This document shows, piece by piece, positions 2,726 through 63,604 of a stretch of DNA of 64,000 bases; the first letter of the stretch is position 1, and the number at the start of each line of letters is the position of its first letter. A program made the position numbers and the translations under genes. The notes under the pieces are model-generated. The model saw nothing but the letters and a program-made list of their open reading frames with translations. It searched no databases and was not told the DNA's origin. The stretch spans positions 71,785 through 135,784 of the forward strand of contig JBKHYD010000040.1 in assembly GCA_046565645.1 (NCBI GenBank), in the 5' to 3' direction. This DNA is from Acidimicrobiia bacterium (GTDB taxonomy: Bacteria > Actinomycetota > Acidimicrobiia > Acidimicrobiales > VFJN01).

Positions 2726-3988
2726 TCAGCCGTCGAGGAGGCGACGGGCGTGGGCGACCACGTCGGCGAGCGCCACCGAGGTCTGCTCCCCCGCGTCGAG
2801 GTCGCGCACCGCGGCGGTGCCGGCGGCGCGCTCGTCTTCGCCGACGATGACCGCGACGCGCGCCGACCGCTTGGACGCCGCCTTCATCTGCGCCTTCATC
2901 GAGCGCCGGTCGAACGCCCGGTCGGCGCTCAGCCCCGCCGCCCGCAGCGCGTGGGTGAGCGTGACCGCGACCGAACCGTCGGTGACGTCCACCACGAACA
3001 CGTCGAGCCGGCGCTCGGGAGGGCCGAAGACGCCCTCCGCGTCACAGGTGAGGAGCACCCGCTCGATCCCGGATCCGAACCCGATGCCGGGGGTGGGCGG
3101 CCCGCCCAGCTGCTCGATCAGCCCGTCGTAGCGCCCCCCTCCCAGGATCGTGGACTGGGCGTTGCCGAGCGCGGAGCTCTGGAACTCGAAGAGCGTGTGG
3201 GTGTAGTAGTCGAGCCCCCGGACGAGCGTCTCGTCCACCTCGAAGTCGATCCCGAGGGAGCGGAGGCCGGCCTGGACCCGCTCTGCGTGAGCGATCGACG
3301 GGCCGTCCAGCGCCTCGGCCATGCGGGGCGCGTCGACGAGCACGGCGCGGGTCTCCTCCCGCTTCGAGTCGAGGACCCGCAGCGGGTGCGAGTCGATCTT
3401 CACGGCGTCGTCCGGCGCCAGGTCGCCGGCGCGCCCACGCAGCCAGGCCTGGAGCACCGAGGCGTAGGTGCTGCGGTCCTCGGGCGTGCCCATGAAGTTG
3501 ACGACCAGGCGCCACCGGCGCAGCCCCAGGGCACGCAGGTAGGCGTGGCCGAGCGCGATCACCTCGACGTCCACGTCGGGATCCCCCGAGCCGATGCACT
3601 CCACGCCGACCTGGTGGTGCTGGCGCAGCCGCCCGGCCTGGGGACGCTCGTACCGGAAGGCGGGGGTGGCGTACCAGACCTTCCAGGGCACGTCGGGACG
3701 GTGCTCGACGAAGGCCCGCGCCACCGGCGCGGTGCCCTCGGGGCGCAGCGCGACGTGGCGACCTCCCTTGTCCTCGAAGTCGTACATCTCCTTCGTGACC
3801 ACGTCGGTGCCCTCGCCGAGGCGCTGGAACACGCCGATGTCCTCGAACATCGGGGACTGGACGAGCCCGTAGCCGTGGCGCCGCGCCACCTCGGCGAAGA
3901 CGGCGATGAGCGCCTCCCAGCGGGCCGATTCGGGGGGCAGCACGTCCTGGGTGCCCTTCGGCGCGCGGAAGTCGGCTCGACCTGACAC
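2726..3988 (-). CDS. hisS: Histidyl-tRNA synthetase
   Basis: 420-aa ORF. FRAPKGTQDVLP, YERPQAGRLRQHHQVGVE and GGGRYDGL are typical HisRS motifs. Confidence 0.95.
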   Translation of the reverse strand: MSGRADFRAPKGTQDVLPPESARWEALIAVFAEVARRHGYGLVQSPMFEDIGVFQRLGEGTDVVTKEMYDFEDKGGRHVALRPEGTAPVARAFVEHRPDVPWKVWYATPAFRYERPQAGRLRQHHQVGVECIGSGDPDVDVEVIALGHAYLRALGLRRWRLVVNFMGTPEDRSTYASVLQAWLRGRAGDLAPDDAVKIDSHPLRVLDSKREETRAVLVDAPRMAEALDGPSIAHAERVQAGLRSLGIDFEVDETLVRGLDYYTHTLFEFQSSALGNAQSTILGGGRYDGLIEQLGGPPTPGIGFGSGIERVLLTCDAEGVFGPPERRLDVFVVDVTDGSVAVTLTHALRAAGLSADRAFDRRSMKAQMKAASKRSARVAVIVGEDERAAGTAAVRDLDAGEQTSVALADVVAHARRLLDG

Positions 3989-4572: not shown

Positions 4573-6672
4573 ATGTCGCCCTCGCCCCCCGTCGCCCCTC
4601 GTCGCCCCGTCACCCTCTCCGCCCACGGCGACGATCGGGTCGACGAGTGGCACTGGCTGCGCAGCGACGACCGCTCCGACCCCGAGGTGCTCGCCCACCT
4701 CGAGGCGGAGAACGAGTACGTGAAGGAGGCCCTCGCCCACACCGAGGACCTGCAGGAGGCGCTGTTCGCCGAGATGCGGGCTCGCATCAAGGAGACCGAC
4801 CTCTCGGTCCCGTTCCGCAAGGGCGCCCGGTGGTACTTCAGCCGCACGATCGAGGGCCAGCAGTACCCGGTCCTGTGCCGCACCGCGGTCGAGCCGCCCG
4901 CCGACCTGCCGGCCACCGAGCCGGTCCCCGGCGAGGAGGTGGTGCTCGACCTCAACGTGCTGGCCGGCGACAGCGACTACTTCGCGATGGGCGCCTACGA
5001 CGTGTCGCCCTCACAGGACCTCGTCCTCTACTCCACCGACCACGACGGGTCGGAGCGCTACGCCATGCGGCTGCGGGACCTCCGCACGGGCGAGGACCTC
5101 CCCGACGTCATCCCGGAGACCACCTACGGGACGGGCTGGGCCGGCGACGCCACGTTCTTCTACGTGCGCCAGGACGAAGCCATGCGCCCCCACCAGGTCT
5201 GGCGCCACACCGTAGGCACCGACCCGGCCGACGACGTGCTCGTCTACGAGGACCCCGACGACCGCTTCTTCGTGTCGGTGGGACTGAGCCTCACCGAGCA
5301 GTGGGTCCAGATCACCTCGGCGTCCAAGGTCACCAGCGAGGAGCACCTCATCCCGGCCGGGGACCCCGCCGCCGCCCCGCGCTGCGTGCAGCCCCGGGAG
5401 CAGGGCGTGGAGTACGACGTCACCCACGCCCCCACGCCGGACGAGGACCGCTTGCTCATCCTCACCAACGCCGGCGGCGCGGTGAACTTCGAGCTGGTCA
5501 GCGCCCCCGTCGCCACCCCCGGACGGGACCACTGGACGACGGTCGTCCCCCATCGGCCCGATGTGAAGCTCGAGGGGGTCACCGCGTTCGCCGACCACGT
5601 CGTGCGCTACGAGCGCCGCGAGGGCGTCCGCCGGATCGTGGTCACCTCCTACCGCGACGGCACCGAGCGCGAGCTCGAGATGCCCGAGCCCGTCTACGAC
5701 ACGTCCCCCGCCACCAACGCCGAGTTCGAGACCTCGTCGCTGCGGTTCACCTACACGTCGCTGGTCACCCCGACCACGGTCTACGAGGAGGACCTCGCCA
5801 CCGGGGTGCGATCGCAGCTGAAGCAGACCGAGGTGGTCGGCGGCCACGACCCCTCCGCCTACGAGACGGGCCGGCTCTGGGCCACCGCGCCCGACGGCAC
5901 CCAGGTGCCGATCTCGTACGTGCACCGGGCCGGCATCGAGCACGACGGCCGCGCACCCTGCCTCCTCTACGGGTACGGCTCGTACGAGGCGTGCATGGAT
6001 CCGACGTTCTCGATCCTGCGCCTCTCGCTCCTCGACCGGGGGTTCGTGTTCGCGATCGCCCACGTCCGCGGCGGCGGCGAGCTCGGTCGCCCGTGGTACG
6101 ACGACGGCAAGGAGCTGCGCAAGGCCAACACCTTCACCGACTTCATCGCCTGCGCCGAGCACCTCGTGGCCGAGGGGTTCACCCGCCCGGACCGCCTGGT
6201 GGCCCGGGGCGGGTCGGCGGGCGGGATGCTGATGGGAGCCGTGGCCAACCTCCGACCCGACCTCTTCGCCGCCATCGTGGCCGAGGTGCCCTTCGTGGAC
6301 TGCCTCACCACGATCCTCGACGAGACCCTGCCGCTCACCGTGACGGAGTGGGAGGAGTGGGGCAACCCGGTGGCGGACCCCGAGGTGTACGCCTACATGA
6401 AGTCCTACAGCCCCTACGACAACGTCGGACCCAGGCCCTACCCGTCCATCCTCGCCACCGCCGGCCTGAACGACCCCCGCGTGTCCTACTGGGAGCCGGC
6501 CAAGTGGGTGCAGAAGCTGCGGGCCAGCACCACCAGCGGTCGGCCCGTGTACCTCAAGACGGAGCTGGGCGCCGGCCACCAGGGCCCGTCGGGCCGCTAC
6601 GACACCTGGAAGGACGAGGCGTTCGTCTTCGCGTTCGTCCTCGACGCCCTCGGGCTGGTCGAGCGCAGCTAG
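4573..6672 (+). CDS. Oligopeptidase B / prolyl oligopeptidase family S9A serine peptidase
   Basis: ORF 4432..6672. N-terminal beta-propeller region plus C-terminal catalytic domain with GGSAGGMLMG (nucleophile elbow). Start set at the ATG at 4573 (MSPSPPVAPRRP). Confidence 0.9.
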   Translation: MSPSPPVAPRRPVTLSAHGDDRVDEWHWLRSDDRSDPEVLAHLEAENEYVKEALAHTEDLQEALFAEMRARIKETDLSVPFRKGARWYFSRTIEGQQYPVLCRTAVEPPADLPATEPVPGEEVVLDLNVLAGDSDYFAMGAYDVSPSQDLVLYSTDHDGSERYAMRLRDLRTGEDLPDVIPETTYGTGWAGDATFFYVRQDEAMRPHQVWRHTVGTDPADDVLVYEDPDDRFFVSVGLSLTEQWVQITSASKVTSEEHLIPAGDPAAAPRCVQPREQGVEYDVTHAPTPDEDRLLILTNAGGAVNFELVSAPVATPGRDHWTTVVPHRPDVKLEGVTAFADHVVRYERREGVRRIVVTSYRDGTERELEMPEPVYDTSPATNAEFETSSLRFTYTSLVTPTTVYEEDLATGVRSQLKQTEVVGGHDPSAYETGRLWATAPDGTQVPISYVHRAGIEHDGRAPCLLYGYGSYEACMDPTFSILRLSLLDRGFVFAIAHVRGGGELGRPWYDDGKELRKANTFTDFIACAEHLVAEGFTRPDRLVARGGSAGGMLMGAVANLRPDLFAAIVAEVPFVDCLTTILDETLPLTVTEWEEWGNPVADPEVYAYMKSYSPYDNVGPRPYPSILATAGLNDPRVSYWEPAKWVQKLRASTTSGRPVYLKTELGAGHQGPSGRYDTWKDEAFVFAFVLDALGLVERS

Positions 6673-6704: not shown

Positions 6705-8936
6705 TCAGCCGCCCTTGCCGGGCACGACCCGATAGGCCTCGTACACGCTGTCGATCCCACGGATCGTGCTGAGCAGCGCGTCGAGGTGGCCGGGATCGGC
6801 GAGCTCGAACTCGAAGCGCATCTTCGACACCCGATCGGCCCCGGTGTGGGTGGACGAGCTGAGGATGTTGACGTGGTGGTCGCTGAGCGCCGACGCCACG
6901 TCTCGCAAGAGGCGCCCCCGGTCGAGGGCCTTGATCTCCACCGTGGCCACGAAGGTTCCCTCGTGCACCTCGTCCCACTCCACGTCGATGACCCGGTCTC
7001 CCTGCCCTCCGGCCAGGGACACCGCGTTGGCGCAGTCCGCCCGGTGGACGGACACGCCCCGGCCCCGGGTGACGAAGCCCAGGATCTCGTCGCCCGGCAC
7101 GGGCGTGCAGCAGCGCGACAGGCGGACCATCACGTCGTCCAGGCCCTCGACGTGGACGCCGGCCGCCGGTCGGCGCTTCGAGCTGGGCCGGCGGGGCTGG
7201 CGCATGGTGCGCGCCAGCACCTCGTCCTCGGTGGCCGGGTCGACCTCGCGGACGCGCTTGGCCACCCTGGCCGCCACGGCCTTGGCCGACACGTGGTTCT
7301 CCCCCACCGCGGCGTGGAGCGCGTCGAGGTCGACGTAGTTGAGCTCCTTGGCCACCTCGTGGAGGACGTGGCCCTGGGCGATCTTCTGGACCGGCAGCCC
7401 CTCCCGGCGCATGGCCTTGACGAGCTCGTCCCGGCCCGTGTCGACCGCGTCCTCGCGCCGCTCCCGGGAGAACCAGTGCCGGATCTTGGACGCGGCTCGG
7501 GGCGTCGCCACGATGTGGAGCCAGTCCCGCGAGGGGCCGGCCCCCTCCACCTTCGAGGTGAACACCTCGACCGAGTCACCGCTGCTGAGCTTGGTGTCGA
7601 GCGACACGAGCCGCCCGTTGACGCGTGCGCCGATGCAGGCGTGGCCCACCTCGGTGTGGATGGCGTAGGCGAAGTCGATGGGCGTGGACCCGGCGGCCAA
7701 GGTGACGACCTGGCCCTTTGGCGTGAAGACGAAGACCTCGTCCTGCTCGAGGTCGATCTTGAGGTTCTGCATGAACTGGTCGGGGTCCGACGTCTCGGAC
7801 TGCCAGTCGATGATCCGGTTGAGCCAGGTCACGTCGGGCTCGTGGTGGCCGTTCTGGTCCTTGTACTGCCAGTGGGCCGCCACCCCCTGCTCGGCCCGGC
7901 TGTGCATCTCCCAGGTGCGGATCTGGACCTCGAGGGGCTTGCCCTGCGGGCCCACCACCGTGGTGTGCAGGGACTGGTAGAGGTTGAACTTGGGCATCGC
8001 GATGTAGTCCTTGAAGCGGCCCTGCACCGGCTTCCAGGTGGCGTGGATGGAGCCGAGGGCGGCGTAGCAGTCCTTCACCGAGTCCACGATGACCCGGATG
8101 CCCACCAGGTCGTGGATGTCGGTGAACTCGCGGCCCTTGACGACCATCTTCTCGTAGATGGAGTAGATGTGCTTCGGCCGTCCGGTGACCTCGGCGTTGA
8201 TCCGCAGCTCGGCCAGGCGCTCCCGGACCTGCTCCAGCACCTGGGTGAGGTACAGGTCTCGCTCCGGAGCCCGCGTGGCCACCATGTGGTCGATCTCGGC
8301 GTAGCGCTTCGGGTGCATCGCCGCGAAGGAGAGGTCCTCGAGCTCTTGGCGGACCTCCTGCATGCCGAGCCGGTGGGCCAGGGGGGCATAGATGTCGAGC
8401 GTCTCCCGAGCGGTTCGCTCCTGCTTCCAGGCCGGCATGGCGGCCAGGGTGCGCATGTTGTGGAGCCGGTCGGACAGCTTGATGATCAGGACCCGGAGGT
8501 CCTTGGCCATCGCCACCAGCATCTTGCGCATCGAGGCCGCCTGCTGGGCCTCCTTGGTGTCGAAGTTGACCCGGTCGAGCTTCGTGACGCCGTCCACGAT
8601 GGCGGCCACGTCCGGGCCGAAGTCGGCCTCGAGGTCCTCCAGCGAGACGCCGGTGTCCTCCACGGCGTCGTGCAGCAGGGCGGCCGCCACCGTGACGTCG
8701 TCGAGGCCCAACGTGGCCACGATCCTCGCCACCGCGAGCGGGTGCTGGATGTACGGCTCCCCTGACGCCCGGGTCTGGGCCCGGTGGGCGTCGGCCGACG
8801 CCAGGTAGGCGCGGGTGATCAGCCCGGTGGGAGCCTTGGGGTGACGGGCCCGGTAGGCCTGGATGAGGGGCGCGACCTCGTCCGCCGGCGGGCGCTCGTG
8901 GCGGCGCCAGGGCAGGACCCGGTCGACGGTGGGCAC
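6705..8936 (-). CDS. relA: Bifunctional (p)ppGpp synthetase/hydrolase RelA/SpoT homolog
   Basis: 743 aa with an HD hydrolase region (HPLAVARIV...LHDAVEDT), a synthetase region (YRSLHTTV-like YQSLHTTVVGP), and TGS and ACT-like C-terminal regions. Confidence 0.95.
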   Translation of the reverse strand: MPTVDRVLPWRRHERPPADEVAPLIQAYRARHPKAPTGLITRAYLASADAHRAQTRASGEPYIQHPLAVARIVATLGLDDVTVAAALLHDAVEDTGVSLEDLEADFGPDVAAIVDGVTKLDRVNFDTKEAQQAASMRKMLVAMAKDLRVLIIKLSDRLHNMRTLAAMPAWKQERTARETLDIYAPLAHRLGMQEVRQELEDLSFAAMHPKRYAEIDHMVATRAPERDLYLTQVLEQVRERLAELRINAEVTGRPKHIYSIYEKMVVKGREFTDIHDLVGIRVIVDSVKDCYAALGSIHATWKPVQGRFKDYIAMPKFNLYQSLHTTVVGPQGKPLEVQIRTWEMHSRAEQGVAAHWQYKDQNGHHEPDVTWLNRIIDWQSETSDPDQFMQNLKIDLEQDEVFVFTPKGQVVTLAAGSTPIDFAYAIHTEVGHACIGARVNGRLVSLDTKLSSGDSVEVFTSKVEGAGPSRDWLHIVATPRAASKIRHWFSRERREDAVDTGRDELVKAMRREGLPVQKIAQGHVLHEVAKELNYVDLDALHAAVGENHVSAKAVAARVAKRVREVDPATEDEVLARTMRQPRRPSSKRRPAAGVHVEGLDDVMVRLSRCCTPVPGDEILGFVTRGRGVSVHRADCANAVSLAGGQGDRVIDVEWDEVHEGTFVATVEIKALDRGRLLRDVASALSDHHVNILSSSTHTGADRVSKMRFEFELADPGHLDALLSTIRGIDSVYEAYRVVPGKGG

Positions 8937-8964
8937 GGCCTCAGGCTACCGAGGGGCCGTCGCG

Positions 8965-10068
8965 CTAGCGCCGCTTGCCCTTCTTGCGGGGCCGGGGCGG
9001 GATGGGCCGACCCGACAGCGACGGGGCCTGACCCGGGGTGACCGACCGCTTCGGGGTGGAGGCGGCCCGGGGCGCGGCAGCCGGGACCGACGGGAGCGGG
9101 TCCAGGACCGGGCCCCCGCGGCCCGTGACGCGGGCACGGATCTCCCGGTACCGGGGCTCCCGCTCCTTCAGCCAGACCGTGACCGGGGTGGCGATGAAGA
9201 TGGACGAGAAGGCACCCACCACGATGCCGACGGTGAGGGCGAGGGCGAACTCCTGCAGCGACGCGGCGCCCATGAGGTTGGCGCCGATGACGAGCATCGC
9301 CACCACCGGGAGCAGGGCGGTGATGGTGGTGTTGATGGAGCGCATCAGCACCTGGTTGAGCGACAGGCTGGCGATCGACGTGTAGGTGAGCTTCCCCGAC
9401 GGGCCGACCTTGGCACCGTTCTCCTGCATTCGGTCGAACACGACGATCGTGTCGTACAGCGAGTAGCCGAGGATCGTGAGGAAGGCGATGACGGTGGCCG
9501 GGGTGACCTCGATCTGGAGGAGCGCGTAGAAGCCGACGGCGATGATCAGGTCATGGGCGACCGAGGCCAGGGCCCCCACCGCCATCTTCCACTCGAGCCG
9601 CCAGGCGATGTACGCCGTGACGACGACGAAGAACCAGATGAGCGCCCGCTCGGCCTTCTCGGTGACCTGGTCCCCCCACGAGGGCCCGACGGTGGACACG
9701 CTCACATCGGCCGGTTCGACGCCGGCGGCTTCCGCCAGCGCCGCCGTGACCTCGTCCTGGGTGTCGAGGTCGTCGATGCGGGACTGGACGCGCACGACCC
9801 GCGTGTCCCCCCGTCCGATGACCTGGATCTTGGCGCCTTCCTGGTTGGTGCCGGCCAGCGTGCTGCGGACGTCGTCGACCTCGAGGGTGCGGCTGGGGAC
9901 GTCCCACGAGGTGCCCCCCTCGAAGTCGAGCCCCAGGTTGAGCCCTCGGGACACGAGGGCCCCGAGGCACACGAGCATCACGAGCAACGAGGCGGTGGTG
10001 CCGACCTTCCAGACGCGGCGGAAGTCGATGTCGTCGTCGAAGGACCGGATGCGGGTGAAGGCGCTCAC
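8965..10068 (-). CDS. secF: Protein translocase subunit SecF
   Basis: C-terminal part of ORF 8965..10914 (GLNLGLDFEGGTSW..., six TM segments). GTG start at 10068 overlaps the secD stop in a GTGA junction. Confidence 0.9.
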   Translation of the reverse strand: MSAFTRIRSFDDDIDFRRVWKVGTTASLLVMLVCLGALVSRGLNLGLDFEGGTSWDVPSRTLEVDDVRSTLAGTNQEGAKIQVIGRGDTRVVRVQSRIDDLDTQDEVTAALAEAAGVEPADVSVSTVGPSWGDQVTEKAERALIWFFVVVTAYIAWRLEWKMAVGALASVAHDLIIAVGFYALLQIEVTPATVIAFLTILGYSLYDTIVVFDRMQENGAKVGPSGKLTYTSIASLSLNQVLMRSINTTITALLPVVAMLVIGANLMGAASLQEFALALTVGIVVGAFSSIFIATPVTVWLKEREPRYREIRARVTGRGGPVLDPLPSVPAAAPRAASTPKRSVTPGQAPSLSGRPIPPRPRKKGKRR

Positions 10069-46155: not shown

Positions 46156-47436
46156 TCAGCGACGGGCCGCCGCCTGCTTGTTCAGGTCGTCCACGACCTT
46201 GAGGAGCGGGTACGGGTTCACCGCCGGGCCACCATCGGGCCGGATCTCGAAGTGCAGGTGGGGGGCGCCGCCCTTCGCGTTGCCGGTGTCGCCGACGTAG
46301 CCGATCACGGTGCCGGCCTCGACCACGAGGCCGTCGTGCATCCCCTCGGCGAAGGCGCTCAGGTGGGCGTAGTAGTAGTACGTCCCGCTCTCGCCCTTGA
46401 TCCAGATCTTCGTGCCGCCCAGCACATCCGAGCCCATGCGGGTCACGATGCCCCGCTCGCAGGCGAGGAGCGGGGTGCCGGCGGGCGCCATGATGTCGGT
46501 GCCCTGGTGGGCGTGCTCGTAGCCGGTCCCCATCATCCGGGGGAAGCCGAACGAGTCGATGAAGCTGTGCGGATCCCCCACCGGGAACACGAAGCCGTGG
46601 ATGGCGATCTCCGAGCCAGCCGCGAACACGGCCAGGTTGAACTTGGCGGCCACGTTCGCCCGGCGGGCGTCCACGAGCGCCGCCCTCGCCTGCTCGAGCT
46701 CGAGGCGGGCGTCGACCAGGCGTTCGGCGGTGCGGACCAGGTCGGCGTCCACGTCGGCCTTCGCGGCGAGGTACTCGGCCACCGACTCCTGGTCGGCGGC
46801 CAGCACCGAGTCGAGCAGCGTGTTCGCCATCGCGATCTCGTTGGGGTCGTCGGTGACGATGTAGCGGGTGAAGCTGTCCAGCCCGCCCCGGACGATCGCG
46901 TTCGCGGCCCGGGCCTCGAAGGCCCGGCGGGCCGCCTCGACGCGCCGGACAGCGGCCCGCTCGTCGTCGGCCAGGCTGGTCACCGCCACCTCGAGCTCGT
47001 CGAGCTCGGCCTCGAGCGCCACCACCCGGTCCTTGGCCTCGGCGTAGGCGGTCTCGAGCTCCACCGCCTCGGCCTCGGCCACCCGCAGCTCACGGCGGAT
47101 GAGGCGGCTGGCGTCGGCGGCGTAGGCGGAGCCGGCCTGCGGGCGGGGCGGCACCGTGTCGGGCACGACGGGCACGGGCTCGGTCGGCAGCTCCTCCCCA
47201 GCCCCTGGGTCGTCGGCCGGCGGGGCCGTGGTGGTGGTGGTCTCCCCGGGCGGGGCGGGGACGGTCACCCCGCTGGTCGGCGGCGCGGCGACCGTTGTGG
47301 TCGTCGACGCGGTCGTGGTGGTGTCCTCGACCGGGTCCTGAGCCAGTGCCATCGGTGCGCCGAGGATTCCCGCGCTGGTCAGCGCGGCAGCGAGGGCGAG
47401 GAGGGGGGTGCGTCGCACGTTCAGAGGCTTCGACAC
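46156..47436 (-). CDS. M23 family metallopeptidase with Thr-rich linker and coiled coil (copy 2)
   Basis: C-terminal part of ORF 46156..47742. Signal-like LLALAAALTSAGILGAPMALA, Thr-rich linker, coiled coil, HQGTDIMAP...GAPHLHFEIRP. Start uncertain (GTG at 47436 or 47418). Confidence 0.82.
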   Translation of the reverse strand: MSKPLNVRRTPLLALAAALTSAGILGAPMALAQDPVEDTTTTASTTTTVAAPPTSGVTVPAPPGETTTTTAPPADDPGAGEELPTEPVPVVPDTVPPRPQAGSAYAADASRLIRRELRVAEAEAVELETAYAEAKDRVVALEAELDELEVAVTSLADDERAAVRRVEAARRAFEARAANAIVRGGLDSFTRYIVTDDPNEIAMANTLLDSVLAADQESVAEYLAAKADVDADLVRTAERLVDARLELEQARAALVDARRANVAAKFNLAVFAAGSEIAIHGFVFPVGDPHSFIDSFGFPRMMGTGYEHAHQGTDIMAPAGTPLLACERGIVTRMGSDVLGGTKIWIKGESGTYYYYAHLSAFAEGMHDGLVVEAGTVIGYVGDTGNAKGGAPHLHFEIRPDGGPAVNPYPLLKVVDDLNKQAAARR

Positions 47437-57235: not shown

Positions 57236-58195
57236 GTGCGCCGAACCCTGCTCCTGCTTCTCGCCCCCCTGCTGGTCCTGGCCGCCTGCGGCGACGACAC
57301 CGACCCGGCCGACGACGGCGCCGAGGAGCGCACGGTCGACCCGGCCGACGAGTCGGCCCTCGAGGAGGTCCAGGTCGAGCCGGGCGGCGAAGGCGAGGCC
57401 CCAACGCTGACCTTCGAGCAGCCCTTCGCGGTCACCACCACCGTCCGCCGGGTGCTCGAGCCGGGCTCCGGGGAGGCGGCGGCAGAGGGCTCCACCGTCG
57501 TGTTCGACTTCGTGTTCGTCAATGGCCGCGACGGCTCCGAGGTCAGCTCGTCCTACGGGCTCGAGCCCCCCACCGTCACGATCGACGACAACCTCCTCGC
57601 CGGCGTCCGCATCGGCCTCACCGGTGCCCAGCCGGGCGAGCAGGCGCTGGTGGCGATCGCCCCCGCGGACGGCTTCGCCGGCCAGGGCGACGACGAGGAG
57701 ACGGGGGTTCGCGAAGACGACACGCTGCTGCTGTTTGTGGACGTGAAGGACGTCCGCACGCCGCTGCCGCGGGCCGAGGGCGAGGCGGTCGAGCCGGCGG
57801 AGGGACTGCCCACCGTCGAGCTCGACGACGACGGGAAGCCCACGATCACCGTCCCCGCCGGCGAGCCGCCGAGCGACCTCGTCGTCCAGCCGCTCATCGA
57901 GGGCGCCGGGCCCGAGGTCGAGGCCGGCCAGCAGCTCACCGTCCACTACACCGGCGTGCTCTGGGACGGCGGGGAGCAGTTCGACTCGTCCTGGGACCGC
58001 GGCTCCCCCGCCACCTTCCCGATCGGCACCGGCGGGGTCATCGAGGGCTGGGACGAGGGCCTCGTGGGCCGCACCATCGGCTCACAGGTGCTGCTGGTGA
58101 TCCCGCCCGAGAAGGCCTACGGCGACACCGGCCAGGGCACCATCCCCGGCGGCGCCACCCTCGTGTTCGTGGTCGACATCCTCGACGCCCGCTGA
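57236..58195 (+). CDS. FKBP-type peptidyl-prolyl isomerase lipoprotein
   Basis: 319 aa. Lipobox LAAC. C-terminal VHYTGVLWDGGEQFDSSWDRGSPATFPIGTGGVIEGWDEGLVG is an FKBP domain. Confidence 0.88.
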   Translation: MRRTLLLLLAPLLVLAACGDDTDPADDGAEERTVDPADESALEEVQVEPGGEGEAPTLTFEQPFAVTTTVRRVLEPGSGEAAAEGSTVVFDFVFVNGRDGSEVSSSYGLEPPTVTIDDNLLAGVRIGLTGAQPGEQALVAIAPADGFAGQGDDEETGVREDDTLLLFVDVKDVRTPLPRAEGEAVEPAEGLPTVELDDDGKPTITVPAGEPPSDLVVQPLIEGAGPEVEAGQQLTVHYTGVLWDGGEQFDSSWDRGSPATFPIGTGGVIEGWDEGLVGRTIGSQVLLVIPPEKAYGDTGQGTIPGGATLVFVVDILDAR

Positions 58196-58234
58196 CGCGG
58201 ACAGCGACCCCGGAGGGCCGCTGAGGAGGAGAAG

Positions 58235-58279
58235 TGGTGGGCGCGAAGGGACTCGAACCCCTGGCCTCTGCCGTGTGAA
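58235..58279 (-). other. tRNA 3' fragment (anticodon loop to CCA only); putative att core of the downstream island
   Basis: Minus-strand read TTCACACGGCAGAGGCCAGGGGTTCGAGTCCCTTCGCGCCCACCA. It has a T-arm with a TTCGAGT loop, a 7-nt acceptor 3' strand and ACCA. No matching 5' acceptor strand (GGGCGCG) or D-arm lies upstream. The TTCACAC loop would imply Val(CAC), tentatively. Confidence 0.65.
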
Positions 58280-58376
58280 CGTGACCCGACCGGACTTAGG
58301 CGGACACTGACGGAACCCAGGCCCAGGTCAGACGGGGTGCGCGGACACCACCGGAAGGCATCGGACGCGACCGGAT

Positions 58377-58398
58377 GTGCCATGGACGTGCCATGGAG
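58377..58398. repeat. Tandem direct repeat GTGCCATGGAC GTGCCATGGAG
   Basis: Read directly. Lies between the tRNA fragment and the stop of the 58404..59132 gene. Confidence 0.7.
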
Positions 58399-58403
58399 CG
58401 GAC

Positions 58404-59132
58404 CTAAGCGCCGAGGAGCTCGCGCCCGTACGCCAACAGCTCCCCGCCCGCTCGACCCTTGGGCGGTTTGCTGAGGATCGCAAGCCTCCTGGCCTGGCCG
58501 AGCTGTCCGAGCACCGTCTTGTAGGCCTGGTGAGTCTCTGCTGCGAGCGCCTTCACCGGGGCGGGGTCGCCCTCGTCCACCAACTCCAGGTACCTAGCGG
58601 CGAGCCGCGCGTACACCTCGTGCGGCACGCCGCGACGGCCCGTGCGCTTTCCAAGATCGTCTGGCCACTCACGATCCAAATCAGGCAGTTGAGGACGGAT
58701 ACCAGATAGCTGCTGTCGCGCTACCCGCTCGAGCTCGTCGAGAGGAAGGCGACGTAGGAGGCGCATCGTGATCCCGCCTGGCGGCCTTCGAGCGCCCCTG
58801 AAGTACTGCCGGCCAGCCCATGGTTTCGTGGTTCGAAACAAGGCCAAGTGGCTCCCGTCGTCGAGTTCTGCGCTGCGCTGCAGCGTGGACATGTTCTCGA
58901 TCCCGACCCCGATCGGGATCCAGTCGCTGACCGAAAACACCCGAAGGTCGACCAACTCGAGACCAGTGACTCCATGGGTGAAGCGCATGGCCACCGCCCA
59001 CGCGCCTGTCCATTCCTGATCCTCATCGTCGACCCAGTTGATGGCCGGCTGGACGACCGTCACCGAGCGCTCGCCGAACTCGTCGACGGCTTCGGCGAAG
59101 TCGACCGGGCGGGCATCGGTGAATGGGTGCAC
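58404..59132 (-). CDS. Hypothetical protein (242 aa), divergent from the island HTH gene; possible C-terminal HTH
   Basis: GTG-initiated ORF with no recognised family. The C-terminal segment AYKTVLGQLGQARRLAILSKPPKGRAGG resembles a DNA-binding helix. Lower GC than its surroundings by eye. Confidence 0.6.
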   Translation of the reverse strand: MHPFTDARPVDFAEAVDEFGERSVTVVQPAINWVDDEDQEWTGAWAVAMRFTHGVTGLELVDLRVFSVSDWIPIGVGIENMSTLQRSAELDDGSHLALFRTTKPWAGRQYFRGARRPPGGITMRLLRRLPLDELERVARQQLSGIRPQLPDLDREWPDDLGKRTGRRGVPHEVYARLAARYLELVDEGDPAPVKALAAETHQAYKTVLGQLGQARRLAILSKPPKGRAGGELLAYGRELLGA

Positions 59133-59194
59133 GCATCGACAATACCCGATGGCCGGCCTCAGTATCGGACCTACTCGGATTCAGGAGGTCCCAC

Positions 59195-59503
59195 ATGGAA
59201 CGGTTGCTCTATTCGATCCCCGAAGCGGCTGCGCGGCTCGGCCGAGGGAAGTCAACGGGCTACGCGATGGCCGCAAGCGGGGAGCTCGAAACCGTGCTCC
59301 TCGGCTCGCGTCGGATGGTCCCGGCCGATGCGCTCGAAAAGCTCATCGGTCGACTCCGCGCCGGATCGCCCAGCGTGCAGCGCCTCGTCGATCTGATCGA
59401 GGACGACGGCCGGCTCGACGTCACCCGCATCCCGCCCGGCACGACCCTGGCCGACCTCGAGGCCGCCCAGCGCATCGTCGCCGAGCGGCAGGTCCCGGCA
59501 TGA
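59195..59503 (+). CDS. Excisionase/MerR-type helix-turn-helix DNA-binding protein
   Basis: ATG at 59195 lies 6 nt after AGGAGG. LLYSIPEAAARLGRGKSTGYAMAASGELETVLLGSRRMVPADALEKLI is the Xis-family HTH pattern. Confidence 0.8.
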   Translation: MERLLYSIPEAAARLGRGKSTGYAMAASGELETVLLGSRRMVPADALEKLIGRLRAGSPSVQRLVDLIEDDGRLDVTRIPPGTTLADLEAAQRIVAERQVPA

Positions 59504-59796
59504 GCCCCCCTGAACGCGCCGCCTCCCCGGGCTGGGGATCCGGGGAGGGCGACAGGATCACGCTGGACGGCACGATCTCCCCCAAGGATGCCACACACGA
59601 CCCTGAGTTGTGCGCCACCTGCCTGCGTGGGGTGCGGCCGTGGACCCCGGAGCGCCGGGAGGCTGCCGCCAGCTACGCGGCGACATCGGGCCGGCGCATC
59701 GACCACCTGCCTCATGGTGAGCGCTCACCTGGCCCGCTCGAGGACGTGCTGACACGGTTCCACCCGGACTGGAAGCGGGAGGACGCCCGTGTCTGA
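59500..59796 (+). CDS. Hypothetical protein (98 aa)
   Basis: ATGA overlap with the HTH gene. Last 98 codons of ORF 59038..59796. No recognised motif. Confidence 0.5.
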   Translation: MSPPERAASPGWGSGEGDRITLDGTISPKDATHDPELCATCLRGVRPWTPERREAAASYAATSGRRIDHLPHGERSPGPLEDVLTRFHPDWKREDARV

Positions 59797-60910
59797 GCCG
59801 TCCTACATCCACCTGACCAGTCAGGAGCTGGCCGAGCACGACGCGTTCCCCGTTCCCACCCCCCATGGTGGGGAACGCGGGAACACGCTCTACGCGGACG
59901 TCGCCGCCCTCCTCGACGGCACGATCCCCGAGCCGCCAGAGCCCACGATCCTCTACCGCAGCGACGGACACGGGATCTTCTACGAGGGGCAGGTCAACGT
60001 CCTGTTCGGGGATCCCGAGAGCGGCAAGACGATGGTGGCCGAGGCCGCCGCCGCCGCCACGATGCTGGCCGGCAAGCGCGTCCTGTTCCTCGACCTCGAC
60101 CACAACGGGCTGCAGTCCACCGTGGTCCGGTTCATGGACATGGGTGTCCCCGAGGAGATCCTCCGGGACCTCGACCGGTTCCGCTACGTCGAACCCGAGG
60201 ACCGGCTGCACCTCCTGGCCGTCATCGAGGACGCCAAGCGGGAACGATGGCCACACCTAGCCATCGTCGACAGCCTCGGCGAGCTCCTGCCCCTCATGGG
60301 CCTGAACAGCAACAGCCCCGACGACTTCACCATGGCCCATGGCCTGGTCCTCAAGCCGCTGGCCATGACCGGCGCCGGGGTCATCGGCATCGACCACCTG
60401 CCCAAGAACCAGGAGAACAAGATCAACGGGCCCACCGGGACCGCCGCGAAGCGCCGGGCCATCGGTGGCGTTGCGATCCGCGTGGTGGTCAAGGAGCAGT
60501 TCACCCCCGGCAAGGGAGGCTCCGCCTACCTCACGCTCAACAAGGACCGTCACGGAGGGCTGCGCCGCTGGTGCCCCACCGAAGGACGCGAACCGGTGGT
60601 GGGCCTGTTCACCCTCGAGAGCCGCCCCGGTGAGCTCATCTGCATGATCCACGCCCCGGAGGCCGGCGACGCGTCCAAGGCCGAAGGCGTCAGTGACGAG
60701 GACCTGGCCGAGCTCGACCTCCTCGACCCGCCGCCCACGTCGGTCCGCGACGTGAAGGAGCGCCTTCGGTGGAGATCCGACAGGGCCGCCAATGCGCTAC
60801 GTCACTGGCGTTCCCGCGTTCCCACCCCCCTAGGGGGGGAACAGGGGAACACGCCCTCATCCGTTCCCCAAGCGTTCCCGGGGAACGGGGAACGCGAGGG
60901 GGAGCGATGA
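59789..60910 (+). CDS. RecA-fold AAA ATPase (RepA/DnaB-like replication protein) with C-terminal winged-helix-like tail
   Basis: 373 aa. GTG behind GGGAGGA. Walker A GDPESGKT and Walker B-like LAIVDSLGEL. Typical of AAA_25-type ATPases of actinobacterial integrative elements and phages. Confidence 0.82.
   Translation: MSEPSYIHLTSQELAEHDAFPVPTPHGGERGNTLYADVAALLDGTIPEPPEPTILYRSDGHGIFYEGQVNVLFGDPESGKTMVAEAAAAATMLAGKRVLFLDLDHNGLQSTVVRFMDMGVPEEILRDLDRFRYVEPEDRLHLLAVIEDAKRERWPHLAIVDSLGELLPLMGLNSNSPDDFTMAHGLVLKPLAMTGAGVIGIDHLPKNQENKINGPTGTAAKRRAIGGVAIRVVVKEQFTPGKGGSAYLTLNKDRHGGLRRWCPTEGREPVVGLFTLESRPGELICMIHAPEAGDASKAEGVSDEDLAELDLLDPPPTSVRDVKERLRWRSDRAANALRHWRSRVPTPLGGEQGNTPSSVPQAFPGNGEREGER
59843..59888. 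repeat. Palindromic GTTCCC/GGGAAC cluster 1 (GCGTTCCCCGTTCCCACCCCCCATGGTGGGGAACGCGGGAACACGC)
   Basis: Hexamers at 59845, 59852 (GTTCCC) and 59871, 59879 (GGGAAC), read directly. Lies inside the 5' end of the ATPase CDS. Confidence 0.85.
60808..60896. repeat. Palindromic GTTCCC/GGGAAC clusters 2 and 3
   Basis: GTTCCC at 60810, 60818, 60863 and 60874. GGGAAC at 60837, 60845, 60881 and 60888. Cluster 2 is nearly identical to cluster 1. Lies inside the 3' end of the ATPase CDS. Confidence 0.85.
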
Positions 60911-61101
60911 GCAACGGCCGCCCCTTCCGCCGCCAGCTCGTCGACCTGCTTGGCCCCCTCGACGGGGAGCGCATCCCCGGTGGTTGCGCCGAGTGTGACG
61001 CCTACCAGACCGTCGCCGCCCTCGAAGCCGGGGTCTGGACCGTGAACGTCCACCACGACCGCGACTGTCCCGCCCTCGCCGCCATGGAGGCCCAGCAGTG
61101 A
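60907..61101 (+). CDS. Hypothetical small Cys/His-containing protein (64 aa)
   Basis: ATGA overlap with the ATPase stop. GGCAECDAY...HHDRDC suggests a metal-binding knuckle. Confidence 0.5.
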   Translation: MSNGRPFRRQLVDLLGPLDGERIPGGCAECDAYQTVAALEAGVWTVNVHHDRDCPALAAMEAQQ

Positions 61102-61391
61102 CCGTCCACCAGTTCCCCCACAAGGCCCGTCCGATCGACGACGAGATGCTGGCGCGGCTCCGGGCCACCCTCACCGCCGAGCCCCTGACTCGGGAAGCGC
61201 TGCTGGCCGGCCCGATCGACGCCATCCGCGAGCCAGGCCCATGGGTCGCTAGCGGGCGGCTGACGGACAGGCTCGAACGCCTCGTGGCCATCGGCCAGGC
61301 CCTCCAAGGCCCAGGCCGGGTGAACCTGGCCGATGGCGTCTACGCCATCGCCGTCATCATCGACGACATCGTCCGCCAGGACCCCGCATGA
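61098..61391 (+). CDS. Hypothetical protein (97 aa)
   Basis: GTGA overlap with the upstream gene. ORF 61098..61391. Confidence 0.5.
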   Translation: MTVHQFPHKARPIDDEMLARLRATLTAEPLTREALLAGPIDAIREPGPWVASGRLTDRLERLVAIGQALQGPGRVNLADGVYAIAVIIDDIVRQDPA

Positions 61392-61525
61392 GCGCCACCT
61401 GCCGCCACGACCGGACCCCGCCGTGCGTCTACTGCAGCGCCAAGATCCGGGCCGACCACTACTGGGAGATGCTCCGCTGGCAGGCCGAGCTCCGCCGCCA
61501 AGGCAAGCGCCGCCGTGTCTCGTGA
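61388..61525 (+). CDS. Hypothetical small Cys-rich basic protein (45 aa)
   Basis: ATGA overlap with the upstream stop. MSATCRHDRTPPCVYCSAKIRADHYWEMLRWQAELRRQGKRRRVS. Below the ORF-track length cutoff, so translated by hand. Confidence 0.35.
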   Translation: MSATCRHDRTPPCVYCSAKIRADHYWEMLRWQAELRRQGKRRRVS

Positions 61526-61754
61526 GACCGCCCGCACCAAGGCCGACCGGCTCCTGATCGAAGGGCGCGTCGTGATCCTCGAAGCCGGGCGCTACGGCGT
61601 GGTGGCCCGCGTCCGGGGCGAGGGCGTGATCCACACCACCCGCTACGGGTTCGGCGCCTGGACCTGCACCTGCCCCGCCCGCACCGACCAGTGCAGCCAC
61701 CTCATCGCACTACGCCGCGTCGTCGCCATCGACCTACAGGAGAAGCCCCGATGA
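61515..61754 (+). CDS. SWIM-type zinc finger protein
   Basis: 79 aa. WTCTCPARTDQCSHLIALRRV matches the CxCx(n)CxH SWIM pattern. Confidence 0.7.
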   Translation: MSRETARTKADRLLIEGRVVILEAGRYGVVARVRGEGVIHTTRYGFGAWTCTCPARTDQCSHLIALRRVVAIDLQEKPR

Positions 61755-61827: not shown

Positions 61828-62160
61828 ATGGCGCTACGCCCATGCATCGACTGCGGCACCCCGACCACGACCACCCGGTGCCGGGGGTGCCAGGCCCCCC
61901 TGTCCCGTGCCAAGTGGCTCAACAACCCGAACCGCGACCTGAACTACCGCAAGCTCCGAGCCGCGTACGCCCGAGCCCTGCCCCTCCCCTGTGCCATCTG
62001 CCAGGAGCCCATCACCCACCAAGGCCACGACCGTGACGCGCTCACGCTCGACCACGTCAGGCCATGGGCTGACGGCGGCAGCAACGACCCATCGAACCTC
62101 AGGCCCACGCACAAGCGGTGCAACAGCGCCCGAGGACGGCGGGATGGGGGCACCCCATGA
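61828..62160 (+). CDS. HNH endonuclease
   Basis: 110 aa. Paired CxxC motifs plus LDHVRPWADGGSNDPSNLRPTHKRCN (HNH core). GGAGG lies 9 nt upstream. Confidence 0.88.
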   Translation: MALRPCIDCGTPTTTTRCRGCQAPLSRAKWLNNPNRDLNYRKLRAAYARALPLPCAICQEPITHQGHDRDALTLDHVRPWADGGSNDPSNLRPTHKRCNSARGRRDGGTP

Positions 62161-63052: not shown

Positions 63053-63604
63053 ATGAGCGTCCTACACCGGACCAGTGCCGACCTCGAGCTTCGTTCCGAT
63101 GGGGACGGCCGCACCGTCTACGGCATCGCGGTGCCCTTCGGCCAGGTGGCCGAGGTCCCCGACGACTACGGGTCGTCCTACCGGGAGACCTTCGTACGAG
63201 GCTCGTTCGCTCGGACGATCGTCGAACGCGGCAGCCGGGTGAAGCTGCTCGCCAACCACGACCGCCGCCGGTTCCCAATCGGTCGGCCCACCGTGCTGCG
63301 CGAGGACGCTGCGGGGCTCTACATGGAGGCTCGCATCAGCAAGACCCGTGACGGCGACGAAGCGCTCGAGCTCATCCGAGACGGTGCGCTCGACCGGTTC
63401 AGCATCGGGTTCCGGCCCATCCGCCACCGCGTCACCCCCGAGCGGGTGGTGGAACGAACCGAGGTCGCGCTCAGCGAAGTGAGCCTCGTCGCGTTCCCCG
63501 CCTACGACGGCGCAGTCCTGGCCGGTGTCCGGTCAGGCCCCTTCCTCACCCTCGAGGCCGCCCGAAAGCGCCTCGCCCTCATCGACAAGGACTTCCTCCT
63601 ATGA
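63053..63604 (+). CDS. HK97 family phage prohead protease
   Basis: 183 aa. GYAVPFG-like YGIAVPFGQV, LLANHD, RFSIGF and EVSLVAFPAY are hallmark blocks of the S78 prohead protease. GGAGG lies 7 nt upstream. Confidence 0.9.
   Translation: MSVLHRTSADLELRSDGDGRTVYGIAVPFGQVAEVPDDYGSSYRETFVRGSFARTIVERGSRVKLLANHDRRRFPIGRPTVLREDAAGLYMEARISKTRDGDEALELIRDGALDRFSIGFRPIRHRVTPERVVERTEVALSEVSLVAFPAYDGAVLAGVRSGPFLTLEAARKRLALIDKDFLL

Follow-up and report, generated by a model that had tools for sequence, protein, structure and literature searches.

Palindromic repeat units in the codons of both tails of an actinobacterial island ATPase form a candidate origin of replication

Clustered hexamers at both ends of the ATPase gene

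Close to one end of a 64,000-nucleotide stretch from an Acidimicrobiia bacterium (assembly GCA_046565645.1, contig JBKHYD010000040.1, positions 71,785-135,784 of the forward strand; referred to throughout as the window), a phage-like element begins at around position 58400 and continues to the window end and beyond. One gene of its operon encodes a RecA-fold ATPase of 373 residues, and inside the 5′ and 3′ ends of this gene lie three palindromic clusters with twelve GTTCCC/GGGAAC hexamers in total, each cluster consisting of two direct hexamers followed by two inverted ones (coordinates in Table 1). The first GTTCCC of cluster 1 starts at 59845 and the second at 59852, with GGGAAC following at 59871 and 59879; the respective starts are 60810, 60818, 60837 and 60845 in cluster 2, and 60863, 60874, 60881 and 60888 in cluster 3. 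Over 44 nucleotides, 84% of the positions agree between clusters 1 and 2; the offset from outer to inner GTTCCC is 7 nucleotides in the former and 8 in the latter. Counted from the start of the open reading frame (ORF), the hexamers occupy frames 2,0,1,0 / 1,0,1,0 / 0,2,0,1, that is, all three frames. A previous sequence-only reading of this DNA had reported these clusters, their near identity and their shifting frames, and our recount agreed with it at every position.

The hexamer as such is not enriched in the window (38 matches versus 34 expected), so the signal resides in its clustering. Its 5-mer core (GTTCC/GGAAC) occurs at 106 sites in the 64 kb, and across the whole window runs of at least three core sites with gaps of up to 30 nucleotides were found only at 59845-59880 (arranged ++--) and 60810-60889 (++--++--). 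Under a Poisson model, the expected number of 50-nucleotide stretches of the window with at least four hexamers is about 0.002. A lone extra GGGAAC at 60240, inside the gene core, looks like a chance occurrence.

Unit 1 encodes AFPVPTPHGGERGNTL in the N-terminal tail, where the predicted local distance difference test (pLDDT) score falls below 50, and has an equivalent at the same position in homologous loci. Unit 2 encodes RSRVPTPLGGEQGNT, and unit 3 ends 11 nucleotides upstream of the start codon of the next gene. The layout of this last unit—a repeat, 5 nucleotides, a second repeat and two closely spaced inverted ones—recurs at the 3′ end in the homologous loci L001, L004, L019 and L023. 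Close to its N-terminus the protein reads AFPVPTPHGGERGNT, and at its C-terminus RVPTPLGGEQGNTPSSVPQAFPGNGERE; it contains VPTPHGGERGNT and VPTPLGGEQGNT, and VPTPxGGExGNT appears in two copies, as the sequence-only reading had observed. Moreover, the left half of cluster 1 (59842-59857) and the right half of cluster 3 (60881-60896) form a perfect inverted repeat (16/16 nucleotides) that encloses 1023 nucleotides, so that exact inverted arms bracket the ATPase gene as a whole. Separately, an exact 16-nucleotide direct repeat, GCATCGACCACCTGCC, occurs at 59696-59711 and 60387-60402, where it encodes IDHLP in a 98-residue ORF upstream and in the ATPase core, respectively; it may reflect chance or be the trace of a recombination event.

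We compared homologous loci from reference genomes (35), viral contigs (23) and metagenomes (77). Across Actinomycetota, about 140 such loci show this kind of unit, placed at the ends of the gene as in the window. Units of the GTTCCC type were present at both gene ends in Micromonospora, Pseudonocardia, Kribbella, Nakamurella, Haloechinothrix, Mycobacterium, Rhodococcus and others. Among the 116 loci with both gene ends present, a strict two-plus-two unit was found at the 5′ end in 78, at the 3′ end in 56 and at both ends in 44. Over 26 loci, each kb held 13.3 hexamers in the terminal zones, 1.07 in the gene core and 0.54 in the flanks (402 kb of sequence), corresponding to a 25-fold higher density at the gene ends than in the flanks.

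The reading frame of the hexamers varied between these 26 loci: GTTCCC was found 40, 25 and 15 times in frames 0, 1 and 2, and GGGAAC 19, 27 and 29 times. The hexamers are accordingly translated as VP, GS(R/L/Q), xFP, RSP, GN, GE/REP or xGT, giving rise to lineage-specific peptides such as FPVP..GGExGN, VPGS..REPGT in mycobacteria (GTTCCCgGTTCCC / GGGAACcGGGAAC) and SPFP..VGNGE in others. Valine codons tell the same story, since 54 of the 72 VP dipeptides in the terminal zones are written with GTT (40 as GTTCCC, 14 as GTTCCT), a codon that is rare in the gene core (9.8% of Val codons). In L009, whose product carries a Toprim-like N-terminal extension as judged by sequence, a unit sits at the junction of extension and ATPase domain; in L017, a Prim-Pol fusion, the domain junction holds only a partial unit. 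Other units are non-coding, for example that of L047, which lies at 9841-9879 in the gap separating a stop codon from the following start. A protein repeat would keep its peptide while the codons drift; we observed the opposite, namely hexamers that are kept while frames and peptides vary. Together with the rare GTT codons and the disordered tails, this argues that conservation acts on the DNA and not on the peptide, as the sequence-only reading had maintained; no homologue was found that keeps the peptide with diverged codons. We are therefore highly confident that the clusters are element-specific cis-acting DNA sites.

The anatomy of these sites was derived from 45 full units in the first 36 sequences. 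A unit comprises two repeats separated by 0-3 nucleotides (mostly 1), a spacer of 12-14 nucleotides and two inverted repeats, with linkers of equal length in the two arms in 24 units and of unequal length in 21. The spacer is conserved and asymmetric (consensus ACCCCCTATGTG) and found in both orientations. In successive units—5′ versus 3′, or in tandem at the 5′ end—it points in opposite directions in 24 of 25 non-redundant pairs with determinable polarity; both orders, (-,+) and (+,-), were seen (related loci, e.g., L008, L010, L016, L019, L023, L024 and L025). The two window spacers (59858-59870 and 60824-60836) are nearly palindromic (CCATGG, CCCCTAGGGG), and their polarity could not be called.

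Relatives use variant repeats in the same layout: GTTCCT, GGTTCCC, GGTCC (in Nocardia), GCTCC, GCTAC, GTTTCC, CGTTACC, GATTCC, GGTTGCAA and GGGTGCACCC, with the changes always affecting both arms together. L031, from a Terrabacter relative, is built differently: it has no palindromic units in the gene and instead shows about ten direct GGGGTTCAC repeats in non-coding DNA just past the ATPase stop codon (approximately 8930-9050), which is a classic iteron array. A motif-agnostic search for the pattern X-n-X-spacer-rcX-n-rcX (rc, reverse complement) returned no units beyond those at the ATPase gene ends and a few in far positions.

These far units carry the repeat of their own element. In L040 and L041, CGTTAC is used at the 5′ end, the 3′ end and the far site (L040:6062, L041:5870), and in L018, L030, L044, L046 and L047, CGGTTC occurs at the 5′ end and at +7.3 kb. 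The far units are intergenic, located at the end of the structural-gene module and not far from the integrase side. As all units of an element share its repeat, the protein that reads them should be encoded by the element itself; a host protein cannot explain this pattern. In L071, a scaffold-like gene carries a unit of the GGTTCCC type within its 5′ end (1778-1817) and is followed by another just past its stop codon (2171-2210). The structural module of L071 is 72-85% identical at the nucleotide level to the modules of family members. To judge by these sequences, the two units may be leftovers of a module exchange or a sign of cross-talk between elements. The ATPase of L071 is a very distant AAA_25 protein (21% identity) whose gene has a repeat of its own, GACTCTCCA/TGGAGAGTC, at both ends (6540-6640 and 7655-7735), where it is translated as GESGESGKSG and LTLQTLQTLQ. 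The principle of repeats in both tails hence reaches a second ATPase family. Finally, a 7.9-kb Streptomyces plasmid (L063; CP146840.1) encodes a distant homologue (31% identity) followed by an intergenic CCTGCCC/GGGCAGG array at 3160-3350, likely the plasmid's origin.

The ATPase as candidate reader of the units

The ATPase gene has a GC content of 0.89 at third codon positions, and its product is identical to an NCBI protein annotated as 'recombinase RecA' in an Acidimicrobiia metagenome-assembled genome. It carries a Walker A motif (GDPESGKT) whose K80 is invariant among homologues, as is D161 of a VDS stretch that we take as Walker B. The Pfam scan gave AAA_25 (E value 1.2e-5, just below the cut-off) and, as the only other match, AAA_24; profile searches matched RecA and Rad51 paralogues, and Foldseek matched RecA, Rad51, KaiC, Twinkle and the T7 gp4 helicase (template modelling score on the target, 0.59-0.61). 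We found hundreds of actinobacterial relatives (at least 788 homologues), some of them fused to Toprim_2 or Prim-Pol domains. Phage and plasmid collections returned distant relatives only (28-31% identity). Because of the primase-domain fusions, the fold matches and the annotation of distant phage relatives as primase/helicase, we read the protein as the putative replicative helicase and initiator of its element. It has in common with primase-helicases of the superfamily 4 (SF4) type, such as T7 gp4, Twinkle and DnaB-like proteins, the RecA-fold NTPase core, the Walker A and B motifs and the association with a primase.

An AlphaFold2 model (mean pLDDT 86.8) shows a compact core and a C-terminal three-helix domain (residues 303-343), flanked by tails that are predicted to be disordered (1-30 and 354-370)—the very parts encoded by the clusters. 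The helices of the C-terminal domain span residues 303-310, 319-326 and 330-343 with pLDDT above 90, and S318, V319, D321, R325, W328, R332 and W340 within or next to them are nearly invariant; modelled separately, the domain reached a pLDDT of 73.5. In two homologues, P0042 and P0045, the annotated start lies downstream, which cuts off the N-terminal tail and leaves the 5′ units outside the called gene.

The ATPase is the only protein that accompanies the units in every case. Its C-terminal domain (..PPPxSVRDVKxRLxWRSxRAxxALRxWR..) is nearly invariant among elements with GTTCCC and changes with the repeat. Counted over distinct domain sequences with their shared ancestry left in, residue 319 is V with GT-type repeats (57/57), K with GGTCC (3/3) and Q with GCT-type repeats (6/7), while residue 329 is R with GTTCCC (22/23) and G with GTTCCT in six cases as opposed to one with GTTCCC. 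The best-supported inference from these sequences is that the C-terminal three-helix domain of the ATPase binds the units.

Of the binders that the sequence-only reading had envisaged, the tail of the ATPase stood up in part: the C-terminal domain does covary with the repeat, but the tail proper is a stretch of predicted disorder that directly follows this folded helical domain. The upstream helix-turn-helix (HTH) protein, by contrast, was set aside as the main candidate. HTH_17 is too divergent to align among GTTCCC loci and, conversely, near-identical in L018 and L054 despite their different repeats (GGTTCCC and GGTTGCAA). The 98-residue ORF upstream of the ATPase gene was rejected as well, as it is not conserved between loci sharing GTTCCC. 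Known host-factor boxes (LexA, GAAC-N4-GTTC; DosR; the PhoP PHO box) do not fit in orientation or spacing, and the element-specific variants further argue against a host factor.

A putative origin and competing explanations

From sequence, structural models and analogy to known systems, we lean towards the view that the ATPase binds the clusters and that the clusters serve as an origin. The protein would bind the units through its C-terminal three-helix domain, and as a primase-associated helicase it would load itself on them; the clusters would be the replication origin of the element, or an origin together with a second control site. The sites would be written into codons of the disordered tails, where amino acids are free to follow the DNA. 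Their location inside the gene would be explained by the overlaps between the operon's genes, which leave no intergenic space. The sequence-only reading had taken the clusters for iteron- or operator-type sites that bracket a replication gene, a view that our comparison of sequences supports. It is the combination of a layout known from Staphylococcus aureus pathogenicity islands (SaPIs), an embedding in the gene as for the RepAM protein and the link to primases that makes an origin the most likely function of the clusters.

In SaPIs, the Rep helicase loads itself and uses a C-terminal winged helix to recognize penta- or hexanucleotide iterons adjoining rep, and the origin has at least two iterons on each side of its centre, in opposite orientation (PMC9371898). 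Similarly, the window holds short repeats at a presumed initiator gene, here twelve hexamers inside the two gene ends, with homologous loci alike. The opposed repeats, at least two per side, correspond to the ++[12-14 nt]-- arrangement of the 45 units, which the motif-agnostic search recovered as well. Further shared features are an element-encoded initiator with a C-terminal recognition domain (proposed in our case), element-specific repeats, a small island (probably of satellite type in our case) and covariation of repeat specificity with the recognition domain, here at residues 319 and 329 and uncorrected for ancestry. The two systems differ in their proteins, as SaPI Rep is a superfamily 3 (SF3)/AAA+ helicase with a C-terminal winged helix, whereas the ATPase combines a RecA fold with a weakly HTH-like three-helix bundle. 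They also differ in the position of the repeats: SaPI iterons lie downstream of the ORF around an AT-rich region, the present ones inside the ORF around a GC-rich spacer. By analogy, the ATPase would therefore work like the SaPI Rep/ori family without being a member of it.

A precedent for the embedding is the actinobacterial integrative element pMEA300. The multiple identical 8-bp inverted repeats to which its RepAM binds lie within the 3′ end of the RepAM gene itself, where a hairpin is possible, and this hairpin was once proposed as a rolling-circle-type origin with a pC194-like nick motif in the loop (PMC2440964; te Poele et al. 2006 as cited there). RepAM is a DUF3631/PF12307 protein (PMC3218068), and our Pfam scan of the ATPase returned no PF12307 match. 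Both cases concern an actinobacterial integrative element with hairpin-capable inverted repeats inside a replication gene, with binding known for RepAM and predicted here; RepAM, however, has 8-bp repeats at the 3′ end only, while the ATPase gene has hexamers at both ends and, in some relatives, far units.

Looser parallels exist elsewhere. The middle of the lambda O gene, which codes for a flexible linker there, holds four 19-bp iterons, each an inverted repeat, next to an AT-rich region; O is neither an ATPase nor a helicase, and repeat and initiator specificity co-vary among related phages. Lambda thus resembles the present case in having origin repeats inside a flexible-coding stretch of the initiator gene. 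In P1 (incC-repA-incA) and F (incB-repE-incC), direct iterons of about 19 bp flank a Rep_3-type initiator gene, and P4 alpha, an SF3-type primase-helicase with a C-terminal DNA-binding domain, has its sites at two loci, ori and crr. With P1 and F, only the layout of repeats on both sides is held in common—we found hexamer palindromes and no Rep_3 match—and none of the P1, F and P4 sites falls inside tail-coding parts of a gene. Site II of SV40 large T consists of four pentamers in two inverted pairs with 6-bp spacing, is flanked by an AT tract and the early palindrome, and assembles a double-hexameric SF3 helicase; it shares the two inverted pairs, but belongs to a eukaryotic virus and has no long central spacer.

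Short-repeat origins with a self-loading helicase as their reader, or with a location within the initiator gene, are already known. New in our case are the ATPase family (RecA-fold, AAA_25-type, neither SF3 Rep nor RepAM), the placement of the composite palindromes, which fall in codons of the N- and C-terminal disordered tails, the asymmetric conserved spacer with its alternating polarity, the far units and the breadth across Actinomycetota. In the literature searched, we found no description of these repeats and no paper that joins iterons, Mycobacterium and phage-inducible chromosomal islands (PICIs).

Several observations weigh against an origin that is read by the ATPase. No AT-rich unwinding region lies by the units, the lowest GC content of any 40 nucleotides across 59780-60960 being 0.57, and the centre of the spacer offers at most a TA, CTAG or CATG step in a GC-rich context. 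Foldseek comparisons of the C-terminal domain gave HTH, winged-helix and FtsK-gamma-like matches that were all non-significant (best E value 2.6), and the covariation of this domain with the repeats is uncorrected for shared ancestry. The ATPase core is equally close to recombinases (RecA, Rad51, RadB) and to helicases, and may have a recombinase-like activity. The GTTCCC hexamer is common to elements of distant genera, whereas iterons usually diverge faster. The GGTTCCC units of L071 do not match the repeat that its own ATPase uses, and the clusters fold better as single strands than shuffled controls, a point to which we return below.

An origin served by the ATPase also has a more far-reaching version, which we offer as a rather unlikely speculation. 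Here, recognition of the origin would fall to the helicase itself, a RecA-fold (SF4-like) primase-associated protein, which would load itself on a composite palindrome that is GC-rich, about 40 bp long and without an AT-rich unwinding element; the sites would be overprinted on the codons of its own disordered tails; 5′, 3′ and far units of opposite polarity would be paired; and orphan units such as those of L071 would exploit or titrate the initiator of another island.

Among the competing explanations, the units could be operator or control sites through which the ATPase or another element protein autoregulates the operon, blocks read-through or pairs distant units (by handcuffing or looping) for copy control. 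Units sited where the ATPase gene begins and where it joins the next gene, far units between structural genes and the integration module, and spacers that point in opposite directions in 24 of 25 pairs, as would suit pairing, would all fit; a regulatory role was also raised for the RepAM sites by te Poele et al. (PMC2440964). A pure operator is weakened by the absence of any promoter-like site across 58200-61500, by gene overlaps that suggest a single operon starting upstream of 59195 and by the position of the 5′ units 55-100 nucleotides inside the ORF, and the link to primase-associated ATPases and the SaPI-like layout favour initiation. We consider control sites an unlikely account of the units, though one that is compatible with an origin and does not exclude it. 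A somewhat lower rating goes to hairpins in single strands, be it as a rolling-circle double- or single-strand origin or as an mRNA structure for stability or translation of the ATPase cistron. Folded as single-stranded DNA, clusters 1, 2 and 3 reached -16.0, -18.4 and -12.5 kcal/mol, far better than shuffled controls (z scores of -3.5, -4.0 and -2.4), variants always alter both arms together, the asymmetric conserved spacer could form a loop akin to the putative nick-site loop of pMEA elements, and the far units of L047 and L071 follow stop codons in a terminator-like manner. Yet linkers are equal in barely more than half of the units, L031 has direct repeats only, and no HUH or rolling-circle nuclease family was detected among the nine window ORFs scanned. 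Neither a T-tract nor a terminator-like site was called at the clusters, and Rfam gave no match at E ≤1 in the ATPase gene or the clusters (the sole weak match in 59000-61500 lay at 59074-59203). Covariation of the two arms is, besides, equally expected of a site for a dimeric DNA-binding protein.

The sequence-only reading had also listed a packaging signal, an option that our data disfavour. Packaging (cos/pac) sites, site-specific recombination sites or linkers for module exchange by homologous recombination would be in keeping with the HNH, protease and capsid genes of the element, with conserved sequences flanking a gene in mosaic elements and with far units inside the structural module. 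The units nevertheless accompany the ATPase gene into L038 and L039, elements without a detected terminase or capsid gene, comparable repeats follow the distant homologue on the plasmid, and the units neither adjoin the terminase gene nor lie at the element ends. Diversification of the repeat within a fixed layout and its covariation with an ATPase domain are not expected of linkers either, so that we deem all three roles very improbable. A protein-level repeat in the tails, or a mere chance cluster, can be virtually dismissed despite the two copies of VPTPxGGExGNT: the same hexamers yield different peptides, and rare codons and non-coding units occur, which, with the frame analysis, rules out a protein tandem repeat or short linear motif; the chance expectation, as given above, is minute.

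If the ATPase does read the units as an origin, a widespread group of small phage-satellite or integrative elements of Actinobacteria would gain an identified origin together with the protein that recognizes it. This group includes elements of Mycobacterium, Nocardia, Rhodococcus, Micromonospora and Arthrobacter, for which the literature searched held no origin description. Two-plus-two palindromes located where an AAA_25-type gene begins and ends would offer a simple signature for annotating such origins, and the covarying residues suggest a residue-to-base recognition pattern that is open to mutagenesis. The units are also a clear example of cis-acting DNA that constrains the sequence of a protein's disordered tails—annotators may thus recognize odd VPGS/EPGT or FPVP/GNGE tails as imprints of DNA sites—and could become minimal replicons for actinobacterial genetic tools.

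Host element and gene neighbourhood

Chromosomal genes (acyl-CoA dehydrogenase, CarD and an FKBP isomerase) end at 58195, and the element follows. A divergent ORF at its border possibly encodes the element's regulator or repressor. Within the operon, genes overlap at their start and stop codons and intergenic DNA is absent; four small ORFs separate the ATPase gene from the HNH gene, and a 155-residue ORF lies between the latter and the prohead protease gene. The window stops inside the element, as does L036, which ends in the capsid gene.

Table 1 Coordinates of genes and repeat units of the element within the window
Feature	Position	Strand	Remarks
Divergent 242-residue ORF	58404..59132	-	PHROG 11473 'HTH DNA binding protein', E value 3.8e-6
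HTH_17/excisionase-family DNA-binding protein, 102 residues	59195..59503	+	First gene of the operon
98-residue ORF	59500..59796	+	Gene call in L036/L037; overlaps HTH_17 stop and ATPase start; no family match
RecA-fold (AAA_25-like) ATPase, 373 residues	59789..60910	+	
Unit 1 (cluster 1, type A)	59843..59888		GC-GTTCCC-c-GTTCCC-[ accccccatggtg ]-GGGAAC-gc-GGGAAC-ACGC; within codons 19-34
C-terminal three-helix domain, coding region	60671..60823	+	Residues ~295-345; LDPPPTSVRDVKERLRWRSDRAANALRHWR
Unit 2 (cluster 2, type A)	60808..60854		GC-GTTCCC-gc-GTTCCC-[ acccccctagggg ]-GGGAAC-ag-GGGAAC-ACGC; begins right after the C-terminal helical domain
Unit 3 (cluster 3, type B)	60861..60896		GTTCCC-caagc-GTTCCC-g-GGGAAC-g-GGGAAC; without long spacer
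64-residue ORF	60907..61101	+	Next operon gene; start overlaps ATPase stop; no family match
79-residue ORF	61515-61754		Weak SWIM zinc-finger match, E value 0.005
HNH endonuclease	61828..62160	+	Packaging-associated module
Prohead protease (Peptidase_S78)	63053..63604	+	Capsid gene comes next, beyond the window end

No integrase was noticed among the element ORFs examined in the window, and ARAGORN called no tRNA at the junction (58196-58404); presumably, the attachment site and the integrase lie beyond 64000, at the far end of the element. The only tRNA in the window, a tRNA-Arg (TCG) at 46872-46953 on the minus strand, is located about 11 kb from the element and apparently unrelated to it.

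Capsid-forming, PICI-like islands of the phiRv1/phiRv2 type are known from mycobacteria (PMC10654092, PMC10085698). Shared traits of this type are a size of about 10 kb, an integrase, a regulator, a replication gene, an HNH and/or terminase gene, a protease and a capsid gene, and judging by its gene content the present host element is probably a phiRv-like, capsid-forming satellite-type island of roughly 10 kb. The two reports treat gene content only, without an origin, and the part of our element inside the window comes without the integrase. Related viral contigs of approximately 10-16 kb encode a tyrosine integrase, an XRE regulator, the ATPase, TerL, a portal protein and a capsid protein, and the module of HTH_17, small ORF and ATPase recurs in other small integrative elements.

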